NCBI GenBank assembly: GCA_963675595.2
Contig: CAXXLZ010000002.1
Span: forward strand, 384,001-448,000
Length of the DNA: 64,000 nucleotides
Direction: 5' to 3'
Source of the DNA: Thermodesulfobacteriota bacterium
GTDB taxonomy: Bacteria; Desulfobacterota; Desulfarculia; JACQYL01
Below the pieces are notes generated by a model. That model ran no database searches. It was not told the DNA's origin and was given only the letters and a program-made list of their open reading frames with translations. The position numbers were made by a program, and so were the translations under genes. Positions 32,419-45,271 of the stretch are shown one piece after another; the stretch's first letter is position 1, and every line of letters begins with the position of its first letter.

Positions 32419-33165
32419 TTAAAGAGCCGCTTCATTGCGGAACACCTCTTCGACTTTGGCCACATCTCGGGGCGTATCCACTTCCATGGAATCGAACGCG
32501 GTGATGACCACCTGGATGGGCGCGCCGTAGTCCAGGGCACGAAGCTGCTCCAGCTTCTCGGCTTCTTCCATGGCGGAGGTGGGCCACTGGGCGAAGGTTC
32601 TCAAAAAATGCCGGCGGTAGCCGTAGATTCCGTGATGTTTGTAGTAAGGGATTCGGCCCTCGCCCCCCCGGACGTGAGGAATGGTGGCTCGGGAAAAATA
32701 AAGGGCACGACCCCTACGGTCGAAAACCGTCTTCACGATGTTGGGATCGTCGATTTCCGAAGGGTCCGTTATCCGATAGATCAGCGTGGACATGGGCAGT
32801 TCCGGGTCCGTGACCAGTGGAGCCGTTACCTCGGCGATCTGCACCGGATTAAAGCAGGGTTGGTCTCCCTGAATATTCACCACCAGGTCTTCCTCCGGCA
32901 AGCCGAGTTTGTCGGCCGCTTCGGCCACTCGATCGGTCCCGCAACGCACGTTGGAGGAAGTCATAATGGCCTCACCTCCGAAATCGCTCGCAACCTCCAG
33001 AATCCTTTCGTCGTCCGTGGCAAGCACCACGCGATCCACCAGAGGACTTCGGGCCGCGCGTTCGTAGACGTGCCGGATCATGGGCTTGCCGGCGATGAGA
33101 GTCGTCGCCTTGCCTATGAAGCGGGTGGACTCGTACCGGGCGGGAATGACGACCGTAACGCGCAT
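32419..33165 (-). CDS. kdsB: 3-deoxy-manno-octulosonate cytidylyltransferase
   Basis: IPARYESTRFIGK, GTDR, VNIQGDQP, ALYFSR and EKLEQLR. Confidence 0.95.
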   Translation of the reverse strand: MRVTVVIPARYESTRFIGKATTLIAGKPMIRHVYERAARSPLVDRVVLATDDERILEVASDFGGEAIMTSSNVRCGTDRVAEAADKLGLPEEDLVVNIQGDQPCFNPVQIAEVTAPLVTDPELPMSTLIYRITDPSEIDDPNIVKTVFDRRGRALYFSRATIPHVRGGEGRIPYYKHHGIYGYRRHFLRTFAQWPTSAMEEAEKLEQLRALDYGAPIQVVITAFDSMEVDTPRDVAKVEEVFRNEAAL

Positions 33166-33491: not shown

Positions 33492-34073
33492 ATGGAAGAT
33501 CTCCTCGTGCGGCTGAAGCAGGCCATCCTGCCTTATCATGACGAAGTGCATCGGTTGCCCATTCTCAGAGACCTGCCGTCGGGAAGGGTTGCGCTGTCGG
33601 AATACCGCCGCCTGCTCGAACGGCTTTACGGATTTTGGGAACCGGTGGAAGCCGCTGTCGAAGCCTTGATCCCCTACCGTCCGGAGGCGGCGGTCTGGAA
33701 CCCGAGAGTTCCCTTGCTCGCCCAAGACTTGGCCTTTCTGGGAGTCGCTCCCTCCGCCCTGGAATCCATCCCCCGATGCCGTCGAACGCCCGAATTCATG
33801 AAGCAGGGTGAGGCTTTGGGGTATCTATACCTGTCCGAAGGATCGAGGCTCGGCGGCAGAATGCTGGGAGACATCGTAGAGAAGGCTTTGGCGCTTACGC
33901 CCTACTCCGGCTTTGCGTATTTCAGCTCCGATGGAGCCGACGTGGAGAAGATGTGGAGCGTGTTTCGAGATTTTCTCCGGTCCCATGCGAAAGTCCATCA
34001 TCTGGACAAAGAAATCATCCATGCTTCACGGAGCGGATTCGCCGCATTGAACCGGTGGCTGACCGAATTGTAA
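33492..34073 (+). CDS. biliverdin-producing heme oxygenase (BphO/HemO-like)
   Basis: Proximal His region LKQAILPYHDEV, YRRLLERLYGF, LLAQDL and distal helix GYLYLSEGSRLGG, then YFS...W..F. Confidence 0.85.
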   Translation: MEDLLVRLKQAILPYHDEVHRLPILRDLPSGRVALSEYRRLLERLYGFWEPVEAAVEALIPYRPEAAVWNPRVPLLAQDLAFLGVAPSALESIPRCRRTPEFMKQGEALGYLYLSEGSRLGGRMLGDIVEKALALTPYSGFAYFSSDGADVEKMWSVFRDFLRSHAKVHHLDKEIIHASRSGFAALNRWLTEL

Positions 34074-34273
34074 TACGGTCCACTCCGAGGTTACGACCGT
34101 TCTCCATTCCGCCCGCCGTCGGTGCGGGCTGCGCTCGGACTTTTCGCCATTCGATTTTCGGCGGCACTTGGGCCGAACATGAGCATTTTTCACGGGATTA
34201 TTGTATGATGAATCCCATTCACATTCGTCCCTCTTCAAGAATCGGATATCCCATCAGGATTGGAGTGCCCTGT

Positions 34274-34888
34274 ATGACTCACGAGGAATTCCAACCCGCC
34301 GAGGACCCCAAGGACTCCCAAGAGTTTTCCGTCATCGGATTGGGAGGATCGGCCGGCGGTTCGGAAGCGTTCGAGGAATTCTTTTCCCAACTCCCGCCGA
34401 AGTCGGGCTGCGCCTTCGTAATGGTTATGCATCTGGATCCTCATCACAAATCCATGCTGCCCGAACTGATCTCCAAAGTCACCGACCTCGACGTCACACA
34501 AGCCGAGGACGCAACGGAGGTGGAGCGGAACAGGATTTACATCATTCCCCCCAAAGCCACCATCACCATATCGGACGGAGTGCTGAACCTTACCGAACCC
34601 GCGCTGGAAAGGGGCGTCAGACGACCCATCGACGATTTCTTCAGATCGCTCGCCCAAGACCGCAAAGAACGTGCGGTGGGAATTCTGTCTTCGGGAACCG
34701 GTACGGACGGCACACAGGAACTTAAAGAAATCAAATTCGCCGGGGGGATGTCCATGGTTCAGGACCCCAGCACGGCGAAATTCGAGAACATGCCCCAGCA
34801 CGCCATCACGAGCGGCGTGGTCGACGTGGTGCTGCCGGCCGGCCAACTCGCCGCGCGTCCGGCCGAATCCCAAGGAGGGGCGAAATGA
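34274..34888 (+). CDS. stand-alone CheB methylesterase domain (N-part of a CheB/CheR-type fusion, possibly truncated)
   Basis: GGSAGG, MHLDP, RRPIDDFFRSLA, SGTGTDG and QDPSTAKFENMP. Ends immediately after the domain with an ATGA overlap to the next gene. Confidence 0.8.
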   Translation: MTHEEFQPAEDPKDSQEFSVIGLGGSAGGSEAFEEFFSQLPPKSGCAFVMVMHLDPHHKSMLPELISKVTDLDVTQAEDATEVERNRIYIIPPKATITISDGVLNLTEPALERGVRRPIDDFFRSLAQDRKERAVGILSSGTGTDGTQELKEIKFAGGMSMVQDPSTAKFENMPQHAITSGVVDVVLPAGQLAARPAESQGGAK

Positions 34889-35949
34889 CGGAAGCGCTCT
34901 TAAGGCATAAGGAACTCCGAAAACAGCTGTCTTCCATCTCAGAAGCGGTGGTCGCCTGCCAGTACGCATTGGAGCCCGAAGTCTGGGAGCCCTACGGACA
35001 GGCCGGATGGGAAAAAAGCCTGAGGGACCAGGAGTTTCATTCCTCCTACCTTGCCGAAGCGGTGATGTTCTCGGACCCGTCGCTGTTCATCGACTACGTT
35101 AACTGGCTGAAGCAGCTTTTCACGGCACTGCGGTTTCCCGAGAAAAGCTTGAGGACCATGCTCGAGTGCACGCGCAAGGTCATAGATGAAGAGCTGCTTT
35201 CGCATGAAGGCGCCGCGGCTTCGGCCTACATCGAAAAAACTCTCGTCGAGCTGCACACCATGCCGGAAATCCCACCGACCTTTCTGCCCGATGGCGCTCC
35301 CTTCGTGGATTTGGCGCGGGAATACCTGGAGCTGCTGCTCCACGGTGATCGGAATCAGGCAGGTCGCCTGATTTTGGACAAGGCGGAAGCCGGCATGCAT
35401 GTCAAAGACATCTATCTACGCGTGTTTCAGCCGACTCAGTACGAAATCGGAAGACTTTGGCAGATCAATCGCATCACCGTGGCCCAAGAACACTTCTGCA
35501 CTGCGGCGGCTCAGACGATCATGTCTCAACTTTATCCGTTTGTTTTCAGCGCCCAAAAGACCGGTCGTCGCTTGGTGGCGGCCTGCGTGGGGGGTGAATT
35601 GCACGAGATCGGCGCCCGCATGCTCGCCGATTTTTTTGAAATGGACGGGTGGGATACGTATTATTTGGGAGCGAACACGCCGACGGATGCGGTGGTTCGC
35701 ACCATTCTGGATCGGGATACTCACTTATTGGGCCTCTCGGTCACCATGACGTTCCACACGCGATTCGTGGAAGAACTGATCCGTAAAGTACGTTCGTCGG
35801 AAGCCGGTCGGATACCCATTCTCGTGGGGGGATACCCTTTCAACGTCGCTCCCCGGCTTTGGCAAACCCTGAGGGCGAACGGCTCCGCCCGGAATGCCGA
35901 GGAAGCATTGAAAATCGCGGATAGGCTGATCGGGGAACCTCTCGTCTGA
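34885..35949 (+). CDS. globin/phycobiliprotein-like domain plus CarH-type cobalamin-binding module (photocobilin-like)
   Basis: N-domain YGQAGWEKSLRDQEFHSSYLAEAV...DPSLFIDYVNWLKQLFTALRFP. Cap domain GRLWQINRITVAQEH. Rossmann domain ELHEIG...LGANTP...GLS...VGG. Confidence 0.8.
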   Translation: MTEALLRHKELRKQLSSISEAVVACQYALEPEVWEPYGQAGWEKSLRDQEFHSSYLAEAVMFSDPSLFIDYVNWLKQLFTALRFPEKSLRTMLECTRKVIDEELLSHEGAAASAYIEKTLVELHTMPEIPPTFLPDGAPFVDLAREYLELLLHGDRNQAGRLILDKAEAGMHVKDIYLRVFQPTQYEIGRLWQINRITVAQEHFCTAAAQTIMSQLYPFVFSAQKTGRRLVAACVGGELHEIGARMLADFFEMDGWDTYYLGANTPTDAVVRTILDRDTHLLGLSVTMTFHTRFVEELIRKVRSSEAGRIPILVGGYPFNVAPRLWQTLRANGSARNAEEALKIADRLIGEPLV

Positions 35950-36023
35950 AATCGAGGGATCTTGGCAGTCCGATTCCCTGTTTGCTTCGATTCTTCTCGA
36001 CAAGATAGGCTTATTGAGGAAAA

Positions 36024-36734
36024 ATGAACGAACGGAATTCTCCATCAGGCTTGGCCCTGCGGTGTACCCCGCACGGAGAGATCATCGAGGTCCTGCGAGA
36101 CGACCTCGGGTTGACCGACGGCATCGAGGTCGGAGTTCCGCTGACCTCACTTGTCGATCGAGCCTCCCTCGGTAAGCTGCTCAACTTCCTGGTCGAGATG
36201 AGAACCCGGGGAAGCACCTCCCTGTGGTCCTTAAACGTCGTCCGGGAGGGCCGCATCGAGTCACTGTCCTTTGCCGGCACGATGCGGGAAGATGAACAGA
36301 TGGTTTTCGCCGCACATACGGGGACGGAGGCAGTCAACCTGTCCCGCCGGTTGCTCGGAGAGCCGTCAGGCAAGGAGGTTCCCACCGTTGTTGCGCCCCC
36401 GTATAAGTCCGATCCGGAGCTTTTCGACGAGCTCAGCCGACTGAATAACGAGCTGGTCAACCTTCATCGAGAATTGGCCAAGAAGAACGCCGAACTGGAA
36501 AAAACAAACCACCGACTCCAGGAAGCGATGGCCGAGATCCGAACGCTCCGAGGATACCTTCCCATCTGCATGTACTGCCACAAGATCCGTGATGACAAGG
36601 AAAACTGGTTACGCCTCGAAAACTACATCGAATCGCATTCCGACGCGCGGTTCAGTCACAGCATTTGCCCGGACTGCACGAAAGAGCATTTCGGGGACCT
36701 CTTCGAAGATGAAGCTGATGGAGAGGAGAAGTAG
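36024..36734 (+). CDS. PAS-like/coiled-coil signal transducer with C-terminal Cys/His (zinc-ribbon-like) domain
   Basis: ELSRLNNELVNLHRELAKKNAELE coiled coil, then LPICMYCHKIRD...W...YIESHS...FSHSICPDC. Confidence 0.75.
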   Translation: MNERNSPSGLALRCTPHGEIIEVLRDDLGLTDGIEVGVPLTSLVDRASLGKLLNFLVEMRTRGSTSLWSLNVVREGRIESLSFAGTMREDEQMVFAAHTGTEAVNLSRRLLGEPSGKEVPTVVAPPYKSDPELFDELSRLNNELVNLHRELAKKNAELEKTNHRLQEAMAEIRTLRGYLPICMYCHKIRDDKENWLRLENYIESHSDARFSHSICPDCTKEHFGDLFEDEADGEEK

Positions 36735-36798: not shown

Positions 36799-38001
36799 TT
36801 ATCCGATCGCTTGACCCGCTTTGGCGACGGCTTGCCGGAGCTTGGGCAGATCGTTTTCCATGAGATTGTTGATGGGGATGACCAGGGTCTTCCGCATGAT
36901 CGCGTCGGACTTGGGAAGAGCGTCCGGAGAATAGGCGAGGCGCCCGGAACCGTCTGGGTTTCGGAAGGGCCAAGCGGAACGAAGCACGGATTTCCCCTCC
37001 AGCAGATGTTCCCAGTTGCGGTAATAGTGCCAGGTATTGTCGAAGAAGTTCACGGCGCCGCAACCCTCCCCCGCCAGGGCTTGGTTGAACTTCCTCGCCT
37101 GTTCCTCCGAAGGCAGAGAGAAGGCGAGAAAGGTCGCAGTGTCTCCCGTCGGGTCCGGGAGTCTCCGGAACGAAACACCGGGCACCTTTTCCAGAGCTTC
37201 CTTCAAAGCGGCTTTGTTGGCCCGCTGCATGCGGAGAATGGCGTCCAATTTCGAAAGCTGCGCCAGTCCCAAGGCCCCCTGAAGCTCCATCATACGGTAG
37301 TTCATGCCGATGAATCGCCGTTTCTCGAGCCCACGTCCCACGTTGGGATCATGGTCATGACCGTGGTCATGGTATTCCGACGCGTTCACGTACAGAGCTT
37401 CGTCGTTGGTGATGATCATGCCTCCTTCGCCCGTGGTGATGGTCTTCACGGAGTCGAAAGAGAATGTGCCGCAAGAGCCGAAAGTGCCCAGAGCCTTGCC
37501 GTTCAACGTTCCGCCGCAGGCCTGCGCGGTATCTTCTATCACGGCCACTCCACGATCACGGGCGACCTCCACGATGGGTTCGATGTCCGCCATGCCCCCC
37601 AACATATGCACGGGAATCACGGCCCGGGTCTTGGGCGTGATCTTCTTTGCCAGGTCTGCGGGATCCATGCAAAGGGTTTCGTCCACTTCCGTGAAAACCG
37701 GCTCGGCGCCGCAATCGAGAATGCTTTCCCATGTGGCCACAAAGGTGAAACCTTGGGTGATGACTTCATCTCCGGGACCGATACCCAAAGCGGCCAAGGC
37801 CACCCTGAGAGCCGCCGTACCCGAGGATACGGCCAGGGCGTGAGCGGCGCCCGTTCGGTCGGCGAATGCCTTCTCGAATTCCTCGACTTTGTATACGCCT
37901 TTGCGCTTCTCACCGAACTCATAACGGAACAGTACGCCTCGAGAGAGCACGTCCAGTATCTGGTCCTTCTCTTCCTCACCCAACAGCTCAAAACCGGGCA
38001 T
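36799..38001 (-). CDS. kdnA: DegT/DnrJ PLP aminotransferase, KdnA-like (8-amino-Kdo transaminase)
   Basis: N-terminus MPGFELLGEEEK...FRY, SFDSVKTITTGEGG, DHGHDH, WHYYRNWEH and PKSDAIM, recalled as matching Shewanella KdnA. Confidence 0.75.
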   Translation of the reverse strand: MPGFELLGEEEKDQILDVLSRGVLFRYEFGEKRKGVYKVEEFEKAFADRTGAAHALAVSSGTAALRVALAALGIGPGDEVITQGFTFVATWESILDCGAEPVFTEVDETLCMDPADLAKKITPKTRAVIPVHMLGGMADIEPIVEVARDRGVAVIEDTAQACGGTLNGKALGTFGSCGTFSFDSVKTITTGEGGMIITNDEALYVNASEYHDHGHDHDPNVGRGLEKRRFIGMNYRMMELQGALGLAQLSKLDAILRMQRANKAALKEALEKVPGVSFRRLPDPTGDTATFLAFSLPSEEQARKFNQALAGEGCGAVNFFDNTWHYYRNWEHLLEGKSVLRSAWPFRNPDGSGRLAYSPDALPKSDAIMRKTLVIPINNLMENDLPKLRQAVAKAGQAIG

Positions 38002-40555: not shown

Positions 40556-40816
40556 ATGGAAGGAAAACACGAACACCAGCATCTGCACGCCCACGAGCAC
40601 GAGCATGTTCATCAACACGAGCACAGCCACGGAGACCAGGTGCATTCCCATGAACATGAGCATGTTCACGTTCACGAACATTCCCACGAACACATTCACG
40701 AGCATGTTCACGGCGACGACGCCCACACCCATGACCACGATCACCATGGAGAACATGGTCTCCATCATCACGATCACCCGGGGCACGAGGGGGAAGTCCA
40801 CGGCCACGCCCATTGA
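40556..40816 (+). CDS. His-rich (37 of 86 residues) small metal-binding protein
   Basis: (HX)n alternation. Has a GGGAGG RBS, its own promoter and a downstream terminator. Confidence 0.8.
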   Translation: MEGKHEHQHLHAHEHEHVHQHEHSHGDQVHSHEHEHVHVHEHSHEHIHEHVHGDDAHTHDHDHHGEHGLHHHDHPGHEGEVHGHAH

Positions 40817-41319: not shown

Positions 41320-43209
41320 GTGAAGACTTTCTTAAGAATCCTTTTGTGCTTTTTCCTGGTTCCCTTCTTTTCGCCCTTGCCCGATGCCGCGGCTCAGTTC
41401 GACCCGCCTTCCATAGGAAGATTCGCGGTGATGTCCGTCAACGGTGAGGGCATGTATCTCTTTTCCATCACAGGACCCGGTCCGTTCGATATTGCATCGG
41501 TAAGTGTCGACGGTCCCTCCGGAATAGTCGAGTTCGGGCCGGACGAATTGCTGATGCGCCTCTCGCAGAACACCCGGACTTTTGACTACCTGATCCAAAC
41601 CACAGCCGCATCGGTCACGGGAACTCACACGATCACCGTGGAAGACGCCTTGGGGAGAACGGACGAAGCTTCGGCGGATTTTACCTTCAGAGACGACGTG
41701 CCCGCACCGCCGATGGAGAGCCTGAGTCCCCAAGATGAGGCATATGCGGGCGGTACCACTCCCACACTGAGCTTCTCGCCCGTAACCGGAGACTATCGTT
41801 ACATCATTCACGCCCGGGCCTTCAACGACCCGCTGACTATTGTCTGGAACTCGGACTTCCTGTTGGAACCTTCCGTGAAAATTCCCGCCGGAATCCTTTG
41901 GGAAGGCGATGCCTACGACTGGTATGCCGCGGTTACCGATGCATCGGATGCCGACAATCCCTCGGGCAACTATCGCCTGTCGGGTCCCTATCGATTCTAC
42001 GCCGGTTCGAAAGGTACACCGCTGGTCGGCAGCGCCGGCGCGGCGGTCATCGATCGCCCCTCGCTCCCCGACCTCTTTCTTTACGGTTTCCGGGTCGAGA
42101 ATGTGGCGCCGTGGGACTTGGTTTCTCTGACGGCGGTCCAGCCCGGAGGGCAGGAAACCGTGTACGATACCTTTACCACTTCCATCCAAATATTCGAACC
42201 TCAGATCACCTATGCTTTCCCATCCGGTTTGGCCGACGGCACACATGATTTGCTTCTCGAGGACGACGAAGGTCGATCGGAGGCGTTCTCCCTCGAGTAC
42301 TCGAAAGGCGAGGCTCCGGCGGTGGACGAGTCGTTGAGGACACCGGCCGACAAGTCTTATGTGAGCACCCTCACGCCTTTGCTCCAATGGACGCCGCCCG
42401 CGGAAGGGCTCTACTATCGAGTCATGGTCTACAAGTACAAATCAAGCACCATCATTTACGAAGGCCGGTTTTCCAATGAGACTTCGGCTAGCGTGCCTGA
42501 AAACCTGCTTGTGAACCATGCATCGTACCAGTGGGAAGTCCACGTATGCCCTTCACTGGACCCCCTCGGGCTCATGGTATACAGTAAACGGGCCGCATTC
42601 ACCGTGAACCTGAACCCGACTCTTCCCGACAACGGTATCTGGAAAAGCGACGACGGATCCCTGAATTTCTACCTTCAGAAGTACGAAGCCGGTTCCGCCA
42701 TTGTGGTCGTCAAGGACACGGGCGGAACATACACGGTGTTTCTCGACCCGGACTATTTCGACGGCATTGATCAGGCTCAAGATTTCGACCAGGGAGGGTA
42801 CTCCCTCTCCCTGAATTTCACGGACACTTCCCACGGCACCTTGTCGGGGACCCTACCGGGCGGCTCCGTGTCAAACATACCCGTGTCCTTGGCTTTCGCC
42901 GACACGCACGCGCCCGAGGGACCGGTCAACGGAATCTGGAAGAGCGACGACGGATTGCTCAATTTCTACCTTCAGAAATACGAAGCCGGATCGGTCATTC
43001 TGGTGGTCAAATATCAGGGAGGCGGCTACGCGGTCTTCTTGGACGGTGATTACCCGGACGGCGTGAGCGCGGAAGACGATTTCGACGGCCGAGGCTACAA
43101 TATGACCTTGAGCCTCACGGACCAGTCTCAGGGCCTCTTTTCAGCTTCGCTGCCGGGGGGCGAGCTTTCTTCCACGGCAGTATCAAGATGGTTCGGAGAT
43201 ATCCGTTAA
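41320..43209 (+). CDS. secreted acidic beta-rich hypothetical protein with two Ig/FnIII-like repeats and two C-terminal ~99-aa GIWK repeats
   Basis: Signal peptide ending AAA-Q. Repeats TTPTLSFSP/TLTPLLQWTP. GIWKSDDG.LNFYLQKYEAGS occurs at 42634 and 42931. Confidence 0.75.
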   Translation: MKTFLRILLCFFLVPFFSPLPDAAAQFDPPSIGRFAVMSVNGEGMYLFSITGPGPFDIASVSVDGPSGIVEFGPDELLMRLSQNTRTFDYLIQTTAASVTGTHTITVEDALGRTDEASADFTFRDDVPAPPMESLSPQDEAYAGGTTPTLSFSPVTGDYRYIIHARAFNDPLTIVWNSDFLLEPSVKIPAGILWEGDAYDWYAAVTDASDADNPSGNYRLSGPYRFYAGSKGTPLVGSAGAAVIDRPSLPDLFLYGFRVENVAPWDLVSLTAVQPGGQETVYDTFTTSIQIFEPQITYAFPSGLADGTHDLLLEDDEGRSEAFSLEYSKGEAPAVDESLRTPADKSYVSTLTPLLQWTPPAEGLYYRVMVYKYKSSTIIYEGRFSNETSASVPENLLVNHASYQWEVHVCPSLDPLGLMVYSKRAAFTVNLNPTLPDNGIWKSDDGSLNFYLQKYEAGSAIVVVKDTGGTYTVFLDPDYFDGIDQAQDFDQGGYSLSLNFTDTSHGTLSGTLPGGSVSNIPVSLAFADTHAPEGPVNGIWKSDDGLLNFYLQKYEAGSVILVVKYQGGGYAVFLDGDYPDGVSAEDDFDGRGYNMTLSLTDQSQGLFSASLPGGELSSTAVSRWFGDIR

Positions 43210-43396: not shown

Positions 43397-45271
43397 TCAG
43401 CGCGTTCTCCTCCCCGACCTCTGGTTTGAGCCTTCCTCTTCGTCGGAACCGGACGCAGAGGCCGACTCCAGAATCAAAGGCCTATACAGGGAGGGTCTAC
43501 GGGACGAAACGGCCTTTTCTTGATTGAACCACCAGTTCTTCGCCAGGGTGGTGAACTCGACCACGAGCACCTCTTCCGAGTCCCCTGAAGCGACAATGGG
43601 CCGATCGTGACTCTCGGACGGCTCCAAACCGTAGAGGGCCGTTCTTCCTAAAAATCCATCACCGCCGACAAAGTTGGCCACCAAGGTATAGGCTTGAGCC
43701 GTCCGAGCGGTGGAATCCCACACGGATAAAGCGCCCTCGGGGTAGAACTTCTCCGAAATCGCCGAACTGCCGAGGACCTCCTTGCCGAACTCCCCTTTCC
43801 AGGCCGATGGTATCGCGATCACATCGGCGCGCTTTACCATAAGGACACCCGCAGCCTCGGGAAAAAGGACGTCTTCACCGATGAGCAATCCCATTCGTCC
43901 CAGACGAGTTTGAAAAACGGGGATGTCGTCGCCGGGCTCCGCCCAGGTCAAATCCGATTCCCCCAGATGAGTCTTTCGGTATGTCCCGACAATGTCGCCG
44001 TCGGGGCCCACCAGCATGGCGGTGTTGTAAAGCCGATCTCCCTCCCGCTCGATGAAGCCGAAAATCAGATACACCTGCTCGCCCCGTGCCAGGTTGATGA
44101 ACCGACGCACCATTTCACCGTCCCGGGTCTGCGACAGCCCCAGCGCTCTTGAACGGTTGTCCACTTCACCCGTAGCTGAGAGCTCGGGGAGTACCACCAA
44201 ATCCAGATTCTGGTTCCAGTTCACCTTCCGGATCAGCCTTCGGATCATTTCCACGTTGGACTCGGGGTCGCCGCCGGTGGGGTCGTATTGGAGCAAGGCC
44301 GCGGTAATCTTTTTGGGCTCCTCGGTCTTCTGCTCATCCCACGGCGACACGTACAGGAGAAGCTCCTTGTAAAGTTCGGGACGACGGCCGGCCAGCCGTC
44401 TTTTACCGGCATTGTCGTATTTCGTCGGATCAATCCGCGCATATAGGATCGTGGTTTCGTCCACGTCGTCTTCCTCTTGGGGGAGCCATTCCGATTCCGC
44501 CAGATTGAGCCCTTCGGGCGACCAGACCGCGCTCGCCCCGATCATGTGGAAACCCTTTTCGGTGTTGGTACGATTCGCAGCCACAATGTACAGCCCGTTT
44601 TGTTCCGCTCTGCCCTGAAGGATCGAGAGGGACGTGGAGCCCGAGTTCGTGGGTATGGCCAGAATATCCGCACCCTGCAAGGCGGCCAGCCGTGCGGGCT
44701 CAAAGTAAAGCGAATCCATACAGATATTGACGGCGACACCTCCCAGGTCCGTGGGAAACACCGGTACACCCAGATCCCCACGCACCGCCCAGTGAGCCTC
44801 CGTTTCCCATTGGTGGGTCTTCCGGTACTTGCCGATGTATCCTTCCGGCCCGACCAGAAAGGCGGAATCGTAATAGAGTTTCGTCTCCGGATCCACCTCC
44901 GGCATGCCTGCCACAATGTAGACCCCGTGCTGTCGCGCGGCTTCTACGAAACGGTCCGTTGTTCGTCCCGGAATGGTATCCACGAAGGGCGCAACGGCTT
45001 TCCGATCGGCGTAATCGTATCCCGTGACGGCCATTTCCGGCGCCACTACGAGTCGCGCTCCCTCTCCGGCGGCCCGCCCCACCGCTTCCAGCAGACGATC
45101 GACGTTCCCCTCCCGCTGATTCAATTCCGGGTTGAACTGGATCGCCGCCACAATAAAGGTCCCATCAGGTACGGTGAACCCCGCCGGCCCCGTGGCACAG
45201 GCCGCGAAAAGCAGCAAGGACAAAAGCGGAAACAACCATGCCGGCCGTAGAAAGCGTGATTTCGAGATCAT
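43397..45271 (-). CDS. two-domain carbon-nitrogen hydrolase (nitrilase superfamily) lipoprotein
   Basis: Lipobox LFAAC. Domain 1 has APE/YRKTH/ICMD. Domain 2 has LPE/YRKTH/IGED. Confidence 0.85.
   Translation of the reverse strand: MISKSRFLRPAWLFPLLSLLLFAACATGPAGFTVPDGTFIVAAIQFNPELNQREGNVDRLLEAVGRAAGEGARLVVAPEMAVTGYDYADRKAVAPFVDTIPGRTTDRFVEAARQHGVYIVAGMPEVDPETKLYYDSAFLVGPEGYIGKYRKTHQWETEAHWAVRGDLGVPVFPTDLGGVAVNICMDSLYFEPARLAALQGADILAIPTNSGSTSLSILQGRAEQNGLYIVAANRTNTEKGFHMIGASAVWSPEGLNLAESEWLPQEEDDVDETTILYARIDPTKYDNAGKRRLAGRRPELYKELLLYVSPWDEQKTEEPKKITAALLQYDPTGGDPESNVEMIRRLIRKVNWNQNLDLVVLPELSATGEVDNRSRALGLSQTRDGEMVRRFINLARGEQVYLIFGFIEREGDRLYNTAMLVGPDGDIVGTYRKTHLGESDLTWAEPGDDIPVFQTRLGRMGLLIGEDVLFPEAAGVLMVKRADVIAIPSAWKGEFGKEVLGSSAISEKFYPEGALSVWDSTARTAQAYTLVANFVGGDGFLGRTALYGLEPSESHDRPIVASGDSEEVLVVEFTTLAKNWWFNQEKAVSSRRPSLYRPLILESASASGSDEEEGSNQRSGRRTR

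Follow-up and report, generated by a model that had tools for sequence, protein, structure and literature searches.

A globin-first photocobilin locus in a sulfate-reducing bacterium and a putative docking helix in the product of the adjacent gene

How does a light sensor without a built-in output domain pass on its signal, and what would an oxygen-dependent, pigment-making enzyme contribute to such a sensor in a sulfate-reducing bacterium? These questions are raised by a cassette of four co-oriented open reading frames (ORFs) at positions 33492-36734 (+ strand) of a 64,000-nucleotide (nt) stretch of DNA from a Thermodesulfobacteriota bacterium (assembly GCA_963675595.2, contig CAXXLZ010000002.1, positions 384,001 to 448,000; the whole stretch is referred to as the window). 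The four ORFs, here called genes 1 to 4, encode a heme oxygenase, a CheB domain, a sensor that joins a globin to a B12 module, and a protein that ends in a Cys/His domain. All four are real, as a preliminary description of the locus had it; that description overlooked the main conserved feature, however, which is a helix with the motif NNEL..RE in the product of gene 4. Our reading, to which we assign a probability of about 0.6, is that two proteins of the locus form a mobile light-sensing module, to which the pigment enzyme is an accessory: light-dependent docking of the sensor on this helix would switch the Cys/His domain, and oxygen, acting through the heme oxygenase, would extend the response into the red.

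The sensor and its family

The sensor gene and its two parts are the following:

34885..35949, + strand: globin-first standalone photocobilin of 354 amino acids (aa), gene 3; its closest PDB structures are photocobilins
34906..35259, + strand: putative photoglobin (bilin-binding) domain, from the PDB alignment and homologue conservation
35314..35910, + strand: predicted CarH-type adenosylcobalamin (AdoCbl) module, from Pfam and signature residues

Gene 3 matches PF02607 and PF02310, and PF00502 (Phycobilisome) at E 7.5e-4, which is under the cut-off of that family. Its best matches in the PDB are the photocobilins 8J2X, 8J2W and 8J2Y (SasPcob and AbPcob), with a permuted domain order that places the globin first. 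A profile built from 121 homologues matches allophycocyanins at E ~1e-6 and, as a second stretch, the bilin domain of photocobilin 8J2X; by this profile the N-terminal domain is a phycobiliprotein-type globin. Sequence and profile matches thus agree on a B12 cap and Rossmann domain fused to such a globin, the domain makeup of photocobilins, and the globin-like and CarH-like modules of the preliminary description are borne out.

The signature residues point in the same direction. S45-L-R-D48 occupies the position of the phycobiliprotein CxRD motif, with Ser at the position of the Cys, which is present in 50 of 172 locus hits. D48 and W74 align with Asp270 and Trp296 of SasPcob (a correspondence read off the PDB alignment, with a numbering offset of +5 relative to the paper), which are key biliverdin contacts (PMC10979010), and both are kept in 121/121 homologues. 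The B12 cap carries G189xxW192 and W192-x9-E202H203, and the Rossmann domain carries G237xxH240, E238-x-H240 and G262xxxP266, such that all four light-responsive elements described in PMC11796333 (GxxW, EH, GxxH and GxxxP) are intact; the tested proteins bearing this signature were photoactive (PMC11796333). The position of CarH His132 is taken by Q193, as in SasPcob. By all sequence features examined, gene 3 is a member of the known photocobilin family, and its intact signature residues suggest that it would bind AdoCbl, plus biliverdin when available.

Two other labels were rejected. The label of MtbC1 or methyltransferase corrinoid protein, given by databases, is at odds with the scores (39.8 versus 215 bits for TIGR02370, and 34.4 versus 350 for NF041607) and with the presence of W-x9-EH, and a CarH/LitR repressor is at odds with the N-terminal domain, which is a globin and not MerR, and with 50.6 bits against the cut-off of 400 for the NCBIfam CarH model NF052513.

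The family numbers 2727 homologues among 8000 scored candidates, and spans Chloroflexota, Verrucomicrobiota, Bacteroidota, Bacillota, deltaproteobacteria and Methanobacterium; in the host genome, the globin profile has a single match, at the cassette. Several variants deserve mention. Three photocobilins of one family (L183, L187 and L192) have Tyr for the bilin Asp, and no heme oxygenase was found in their genomes, which may mean that the bilin site decays where the enzyme is missing, although other members of the same family keep the Asp. The Methanobacterium proteins (L040, L066 and L068), encoded divergently from nucS, keep both the bilin Asp and Trp and have no helix partner, and heme oxygenase was not found in 2/2 carrier genomes. 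In a split variant (L082, L083, L206, L207 and L208), a heme oxygenase-globin fusion is followed by a separate B12 protein and then by the helix partner, and at L220 (G075:C69) the B12 protein and a partner that joins the helix to the Cys/His domain are duplicated in tandem, and a standalone globin separates the two copies.

A conserved helix and a Cys/His domain in the partner protein

The product of gene 4 contains three parts:

36024..36734, + strand: partner protein of 236 aa with PAS domain, NNEL..RE helix and Cys/His output domain (AlphaFold2 model, Foldseek, alignments)
36045..36341, + strand: photocobilin-associated PAS domain, optional in the family (Foldseek PAS matches, E ~1e-4)
36423..36509, + strand: conserved helix FDELSRLNNELVNLHRELAKKNAEL, a putative photocobilin docking site (co-occurrence, conservation, reverse search, co-folding)
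36540..36701, + strand: unnamed output domain LPIC182xxC185KIRD..W..Y..H212xxC215xxC218 (matches in genome and phylum)

Gene 4 has no informative Pfam match. Its AlphaFold2 model, with a predicted local distance difference test score (pLDDT) of 86.6, consists of a PAS domain, on which Foldseek agrees, a helix at residues 131-176 and a small C-terminal domain. A two-component sensor kinase or a diguanylate cyclase was considered and rejected, since Pfam and NCBIfam find neither HisKA-HATPase nor GGDEF; the proposal of an output without kinase or GGDEF therefore stands. The PAS-like fold and the CxxC..HxxCxxC pattern noted earlier also stand, but the generic coiled coil between them gives way to a specific conserved motif.

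This motif, NNELxNLxRELAKKN in gene 4 with the family consensus YDELSRLNNELxNLQRELAKKNxEL, travels with photocobilins. Of the 141 loci with at least 700 nt of room downstream of the B12 domain, 115 have it no more than 900 nt past that domain, 85 of these 115 together with the same PAS domain, and in four ORFs it is fused to the photocobilin itself. The host genome (6.8 Mb) contains one helix match and one PAS match, both at the cassette. The association also holds in the reverse direction: in a search of 251 evenly sampled genomes of the phylum with the helix as the only query, 19 of 23 non-self hits lay beside a photoglobin/B12 gene (18 with a B12 domain of the W-x9-EH type no more than 1.5 kb away, and one with a photoglobin-B12 gene cut by the edge of the locus), with a weak B12 fragment beside one of the others and none beside the remaining three; at E<=1e-6, the linked fraction was 19/20.

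In the heptad register that we assigned, the helix has Asn or Gln at position a and Leu at position d, and R149 (100% conserved) and N142 (95%) are at outward-facing positions, as would be expected of a docking surface. Co-folding of two photocobilins with two helices gave a score of 0.50, compared with 0.01 for the best control, with a contact agreement between runs of at least 93% and a partner pLDDT of at least 69. The mark set for this tool is reached by 116/157 solved pairs and 2/215 mismatched pairs, with 18 solved pairs and both mismatches at scores of 0.60 or below, and the co-folding thus lends weak support to helix-photocobilin binding. Considering the co-occurrence, the exposed invariant residues, the natural fusions and the weak co-folding pass together, the NNEL..RE helix looks like a putative docking site for the photocobilin. 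A comparison of helix-positive with helix-negative photocobilins yielded seven differing positions, which are confounded by the methanogen clade.

In most partners, the main helix is preceded by a weaker copy of itself (INNEQxNxLR), situated after the PAS domain, e.g., L005:6083-6610; this first copy is missing from both gene 4 and P0121, a full-length gene 4 homologue with 63% identity.

What follows the helix differs between loci. A Pfam scan of 43/77 downstream ORFs included 38 with the helix, of which 32 have a kinase, three a GGDEF domain, one a PAS domain only and two none; one of the latter two, L058, carries the Cys/His domain. Kinase output is therefore found at most loci, and the Cys/His domain is a minority form. 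The fusion of helix and Cys/His domain beside a photoglobin/B12 gene recurs, according to two phylum samples and a scan of GTDB, in L058, G106, G075 (twice) and G409.

The Cys/His domain itself, LPICxxCKKIRDD..W..Y..HxxCPxC, is a very common C-terminal signalling output domain. It has 18 matches in the host genome, where the domains in front of it are of the receiver, PAS, GAF, solute-binding or CheB-CheR-PAS kind and it takes the place usually held by a kinase or cyclase, and it is present in 53/121 genomes of the phylum. It has no Pfam family, and its Atlas clusters are labelled only "hypothetical"; Atlas searches yielded nothing beyond such clusters and generic PAS ones. A model of the domain (pLDDT 84) gave no Foldseek match at E<=0.001 and no VIA match at Z>=2, in searches that easily miss small domains, and a PDB sequence search with the alignment A6 was swamped by the receiver domains contained in that alignment. 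We take treble clef folds and the DksA/TraR zinc fingers to be a presumable lead for the domain; no structural match was found. Judging from its sequence, the domain is a probable zinc site, and it would most likely act by protein binding. The CMYCH of gene 4 (window 36567-36581) was rejected as a heme c site and is a chance occurrence of CxxCH, given the Lys that the family consensus shows there.

Proposed mechanism, bilin supply and the insertion site

Based on these observations, we propose that the standalone photocobilin binds AdoCbl, and biliverdin if available. Green light would cleave the Co-C bond and alter the dimer, as would red light once biliverdin is bound; both effects have been shown for SasPcob. 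The sensor would dock on the NNEL..RE helix of the protein encoded immediately downstream and thereby shift a signalling coiled coil with a polar core, with the dark AdoCbl-photocobilin dimer and the light state binding the helix differently. The helix would in turn drive whatever lies downstream, namely a histidine kinase or GGDEF domain at most loci and, here, a zinc-finger-like Cys/His domain. The heme oxygenase would make biliverdin from heme and O2, such that exposure to O2 would switch on a red-light channel in a sulfate reducer, and it would be dispensable for the basic light response, with CheB as a broken passenger. A stronger version, in which the helix is a general transplantable docking adaptor for kinases, cyclases and zinc-finger outputs, the pathway here is enzyme-free, and the red channel opens only after O2 and heme oxygenase have supplied biliverdin, is one that we hold tentatively, with the odds somewhat against it.

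It should be noted that several observations weigh against the two-protein light-sensing module. Because some of the related loci are redundant or kin to one another, the counts are not independent. The helix is missing from 26/141 loci, with the Methanobacterium group as the main exception, and in a second phylum (151 genomes) 3/7 non-seed helix hits lie beside B12 genes, the four unlinked hits being weak (E 6e-6 to 5e-5) generic helices. The co-folding score falls in a band that is more often wrong than right unless binding is likely beforehand, and it gives no interface. The locus may also be decaying, given that it bears a deletion scar (see below) and that its partner protein is missing the first helix copy, which most homologues have. 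Finally, neither a photolyase nor a phytoene/squalene synthase was found in the host genome, which leaves no obvious target for light protection.

The last observation also favours the view that the system is mainly a sensor of cofactor or redox state in the dark, reporting AdoCbl occupancy, cobalt redox or tetrapyrrole status through the same helix, with light being incidental. Many carriers are, judging by the titles of their records, anaerobes (Anaerolineae, Methanobacterium and Desulfomonile), most of them are missing a heme oxygenase, and the apo and AdoCbl-bound forms of AbDPcob already differ in activity (PMC10979010). We nevertheless consider this view unlikely, because gene 3 retains the complete light-responsive signature, which in tested proteins went together with photoactivity (PMC11796333).

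Turning to the bilin supply in the light-sensing module, and to the second and remaining genes of the cassette, the relevant features are these:

33492..34073, + strand: heme oxygenase, the putative biliverdin source and the only one in the genome (PF01126, E 3e-14)
34274..34888, + strand: truncated CheB domain, N-terminal relic of a CheB-CheR-PAS fusion (PF01339, E 1.5e-50)
34860..34868, no strand: breakpoint with extra DNA in related strains, a deletion scar here or an insertion there (strain comparison)
32419..33165, - strand: kdsB-like cytidylyltransferase, left flank, part of a host operon (Pfam; degT neighbour in G001, G002 and G003)
36799..38001, - strand: DegT-family aminotransferase, right flank (Pfam and comparison with the gene order of relatives)

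The heme oxygenase assignment holds. PF01126 scores above its cut-off, and the protein has the proximal His and the distal EG-x2-LGG helix of HO-1, HmuO and BphO; H16 aligns with the His of solved heme oxygenases and, like the motif Y113-x2-EG-x2-LG, is invariant in 12/12 photocobilin-linked enzymes. (At L013:4151-4784, a photocobilin-linked heme oxygenase is split into two ORFs by a frameshift or an assembly error.) No PHY domain was found in the host genome by profile search, in agreement with the earlier statement that no phytochrome is present, and among the 251 genomes of the phylum PF01126 occurs in six and PHY in none. In that sample, each of the three strong non-self heme oxygenases is a fusion with a globin and directly adjoins a B12 gene, unlike the two weak ones, which supports the idea that the enzyme supplies bilin where it is present. 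The heme oxygenase of the cassette, as its sequence relatives suggest, probably supplies bilin to gene 3, in line with the earlier proposal of a self-supplied pigment.

An obligatory role of the enzyme was rejected. In the survey of other genomes, a linked heme oxygenase was indeed found, but at 9/163 other related loci, as divergent genes or as fusions with globin (two of these fusions come from the same order). An alignment search detected it in only 2/19 helix-positive genomes and in 0/3 further relatives, and PF01126 is present in 1/5 carriers from other phyla. Given this scarcity, heme oxygenase is a minority accessory of photocobilin loci. Since characterised photocobilins of the SasPcob type respond to green light with AdoCbl alone and to red light with biliverdin (PMC10979010), an O2-dependent bilin would be expected to add red sensitivity rather than to gate all signalling.

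For the same reason, the joint light-and-oxygen sensing put forward in the preliminary description is overstated. In its strict form, in which bilin made by heme oxygenase is required for any signalling, we give it a small chance. Heme oxygenase is rare in the phylum with its strong hits at photocobilin loci, the host, with two full-length cytochrome bd subunit I genes (and two weak matches), meets O2, biliverdin reversed the sign of the SasPcob effect on a cyclase (PMC10979010), and CarH, which integrates light and oxygen, needs O2 to complete its cycle (PMC10442372). However, AdoCbl-only photocobilins respond to green light, no heme oxygenase was found in 17/19 helix-positive genomes, and the Gln at the CarH His132 position means that the O2-dependent bis-His switch is not expected in gene 3.

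The lone CheB of the preliminary description is confirmed as a domain but not as an intact component. It keeps S26, H53 and D145, the conserved Gly of DGxxG is replaced by Glu, and the homology ends at LAAR|P, just before the last helix, which is gone. CheB-CheR fusions make up all five of its closest longer relatives (55-61% identity). Related strains that come from two other studies have additional DNA exactly at 34860-34868, amounting to no less than 1.6 kb in one case and 3 kb in the other: X5 records 28 and 29 come together at 34863-34868 and then continue into unlike sequence for about 1.3 kb and 3.1 kb, and in X3 record 11 position 34862 is preceded by 1606 unlike bases. CheB is near the sensor in 1/80 GTDB loci, where it is a protein of its own (369 aa) at a distance of about 2.5 kb. 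An intact chemotaxis response regulator (there is no receiver, the scores are under the NCBIfam cut-offs and the C-terminal helix of the CheB-CheR fusions is missing) and a working component of the cassette were both rejected, the latter on its rarity and truncation, and we read the sequence as a deletion relic of a CheB-CheR fusion and a broken passenger.

The cassette interrupts a queD-adh-degT-kdsB-radA operon and lies on the opposite strand. In two genomes of the same family and one of the same order degT and kdsB are adjacent, which indicates that the cassette was inserted into a housekeeping operon; the closest sampled relatives have the same site without it. Related strains from the two other studies have sequence matching the heme oxygenase, photocobilin and partner genes at this site. 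The GC content of the cassette, both overall and at third codon positions (GC3), is the same as that of the flanks, and a scan of the locus for promoters and terminators gave signal at chance level. The host genome, 98% complete, carries dsrA with dsrD adjoining, as befits the sulfate reducer proposed earlier, and four CobA/BtuR matches. That the locus is a decaying mosaic, a kinase operon that swapped its kinase for a common C-terminal domain and no longer signals, would fit the truncated CheB with its scar, the loss of the first helix copy, the empty site in the closest sampled relatives and the promiscuity of the Cys/His domain, but appears improbable in view of the intact heme oxygenase, photocobilin and partner ORFs with all key residues, the full-length homologue P0121, the recurrence of the helix-Cys/His fusion in at least four other genomes and the matching sequences in the related strains.

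Elsewhere in the window, an 86-aa His/Glu-rich ORF with HEHEH repeats (40556-40816, +) is probably a metal-binding peptide, a 629-aa protein (41320-43209, +) has a signal-like N-terminus, no Pfam match and a duplicated C-terminal NGIWKSDDG repeat, and a lipoprotein-like protein (43397-45271, -) contains two carbon-nitrogen hydrolase domains in tandem.

Implications and comparison with known systems

The function of standalone photocobilins was described as less clear, with protein-protein contact proposed, by Zhang 2024 (PMC10979010), and a helix of about 30 residues would be a specific candidate for where the natural binding takes place, a point left open in that paper. If this is true, the helix would be a small red/green-light optogenetic docking tag, naturally grafted onto kinases and cyclases. 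The locus would also provide the first controllable input to an output domain that is present in about 44% of the sampled phylum genomes and has neither a Pfam family nor a solved structure, and it would be a clean test case for the tuning of light sensing by O2-dependent pigment synthesis in a strict-anaerobe lineage.

The earlier statement that the configuration is undescribed is partly correct. The sensor, its link to heme oxygenase and the light-plus-O2 idea each have a precedent in print (PMC8717448, PMC10151467, PMC10979010 and PMC10442372), including globin-first photocobilins and heme oxygenases fused to photoglobins or encoded in their operons. In the available open-access text, by contrast, no description was found of the docking helix, the Cys/His domain or the enzyme-free output; figures in PMC8717448 may show such operons under the generic label of S-helix.

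Among the known systems close to the cassette are the loci of the photoglobin family. Schneider 2022 (PMC8717448) reported photoglobins before or after B12 domains, fused to heme oxygenase or in operons with it, and, in bacteria and archaea, beside PAS, S-helix, kinase and GGDEF domains, all of which the cassette and its relatives share. Among transmitters, the available text of that paper names only the generic S-helix, with neither a dedicated docking motif nor a Cys/His output domain. In the BBAG-2 and other globins associated with heme oxygenase and B12, the globin is separate and often beside a pre-PcyA reductase (PMC10151467). In gene 3, on the other hand, the globin is fused to the B12 module, and the cassette contains no reductase. 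In bphO-bphP operons, heme oxygenase lies upstream of a biliverdin photoreceptor that is linked to a two-component output; the receptor here is instead a globin-B12 protein. CarH and LitR share the AdoCbl photoreceptor module with gene 3 (PMC10442372), which differs in having no MerR DNA-binding domain and Gln for His132.

Gene 3 itself most closely resembles SasPcob and AbDPcob (PMC10979010; 8J2W, 8J2X and 8J2Y), with which it shares the three domains, W-x9-EH, ExH, the bilin Asp and Trp and the absence of a covalent Cys, as well as the standalone form proposed to work via protein-protein contact. The globin is N-terminal in gene 3 and C-terminal in those proteins; both groups are listed in that paper, in which the globin-first group is known from predicted models only. 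His137 of SasPcob is not conserved in gene 3, and a heme oxygenase is adjacent here. Whereas a non-cognate cyclase was the only output tested in PMC10979010, as far as its available text goes, and STAS and SpoIIE partners were predicted, a natural partner of the sensor can be identified at this locus.

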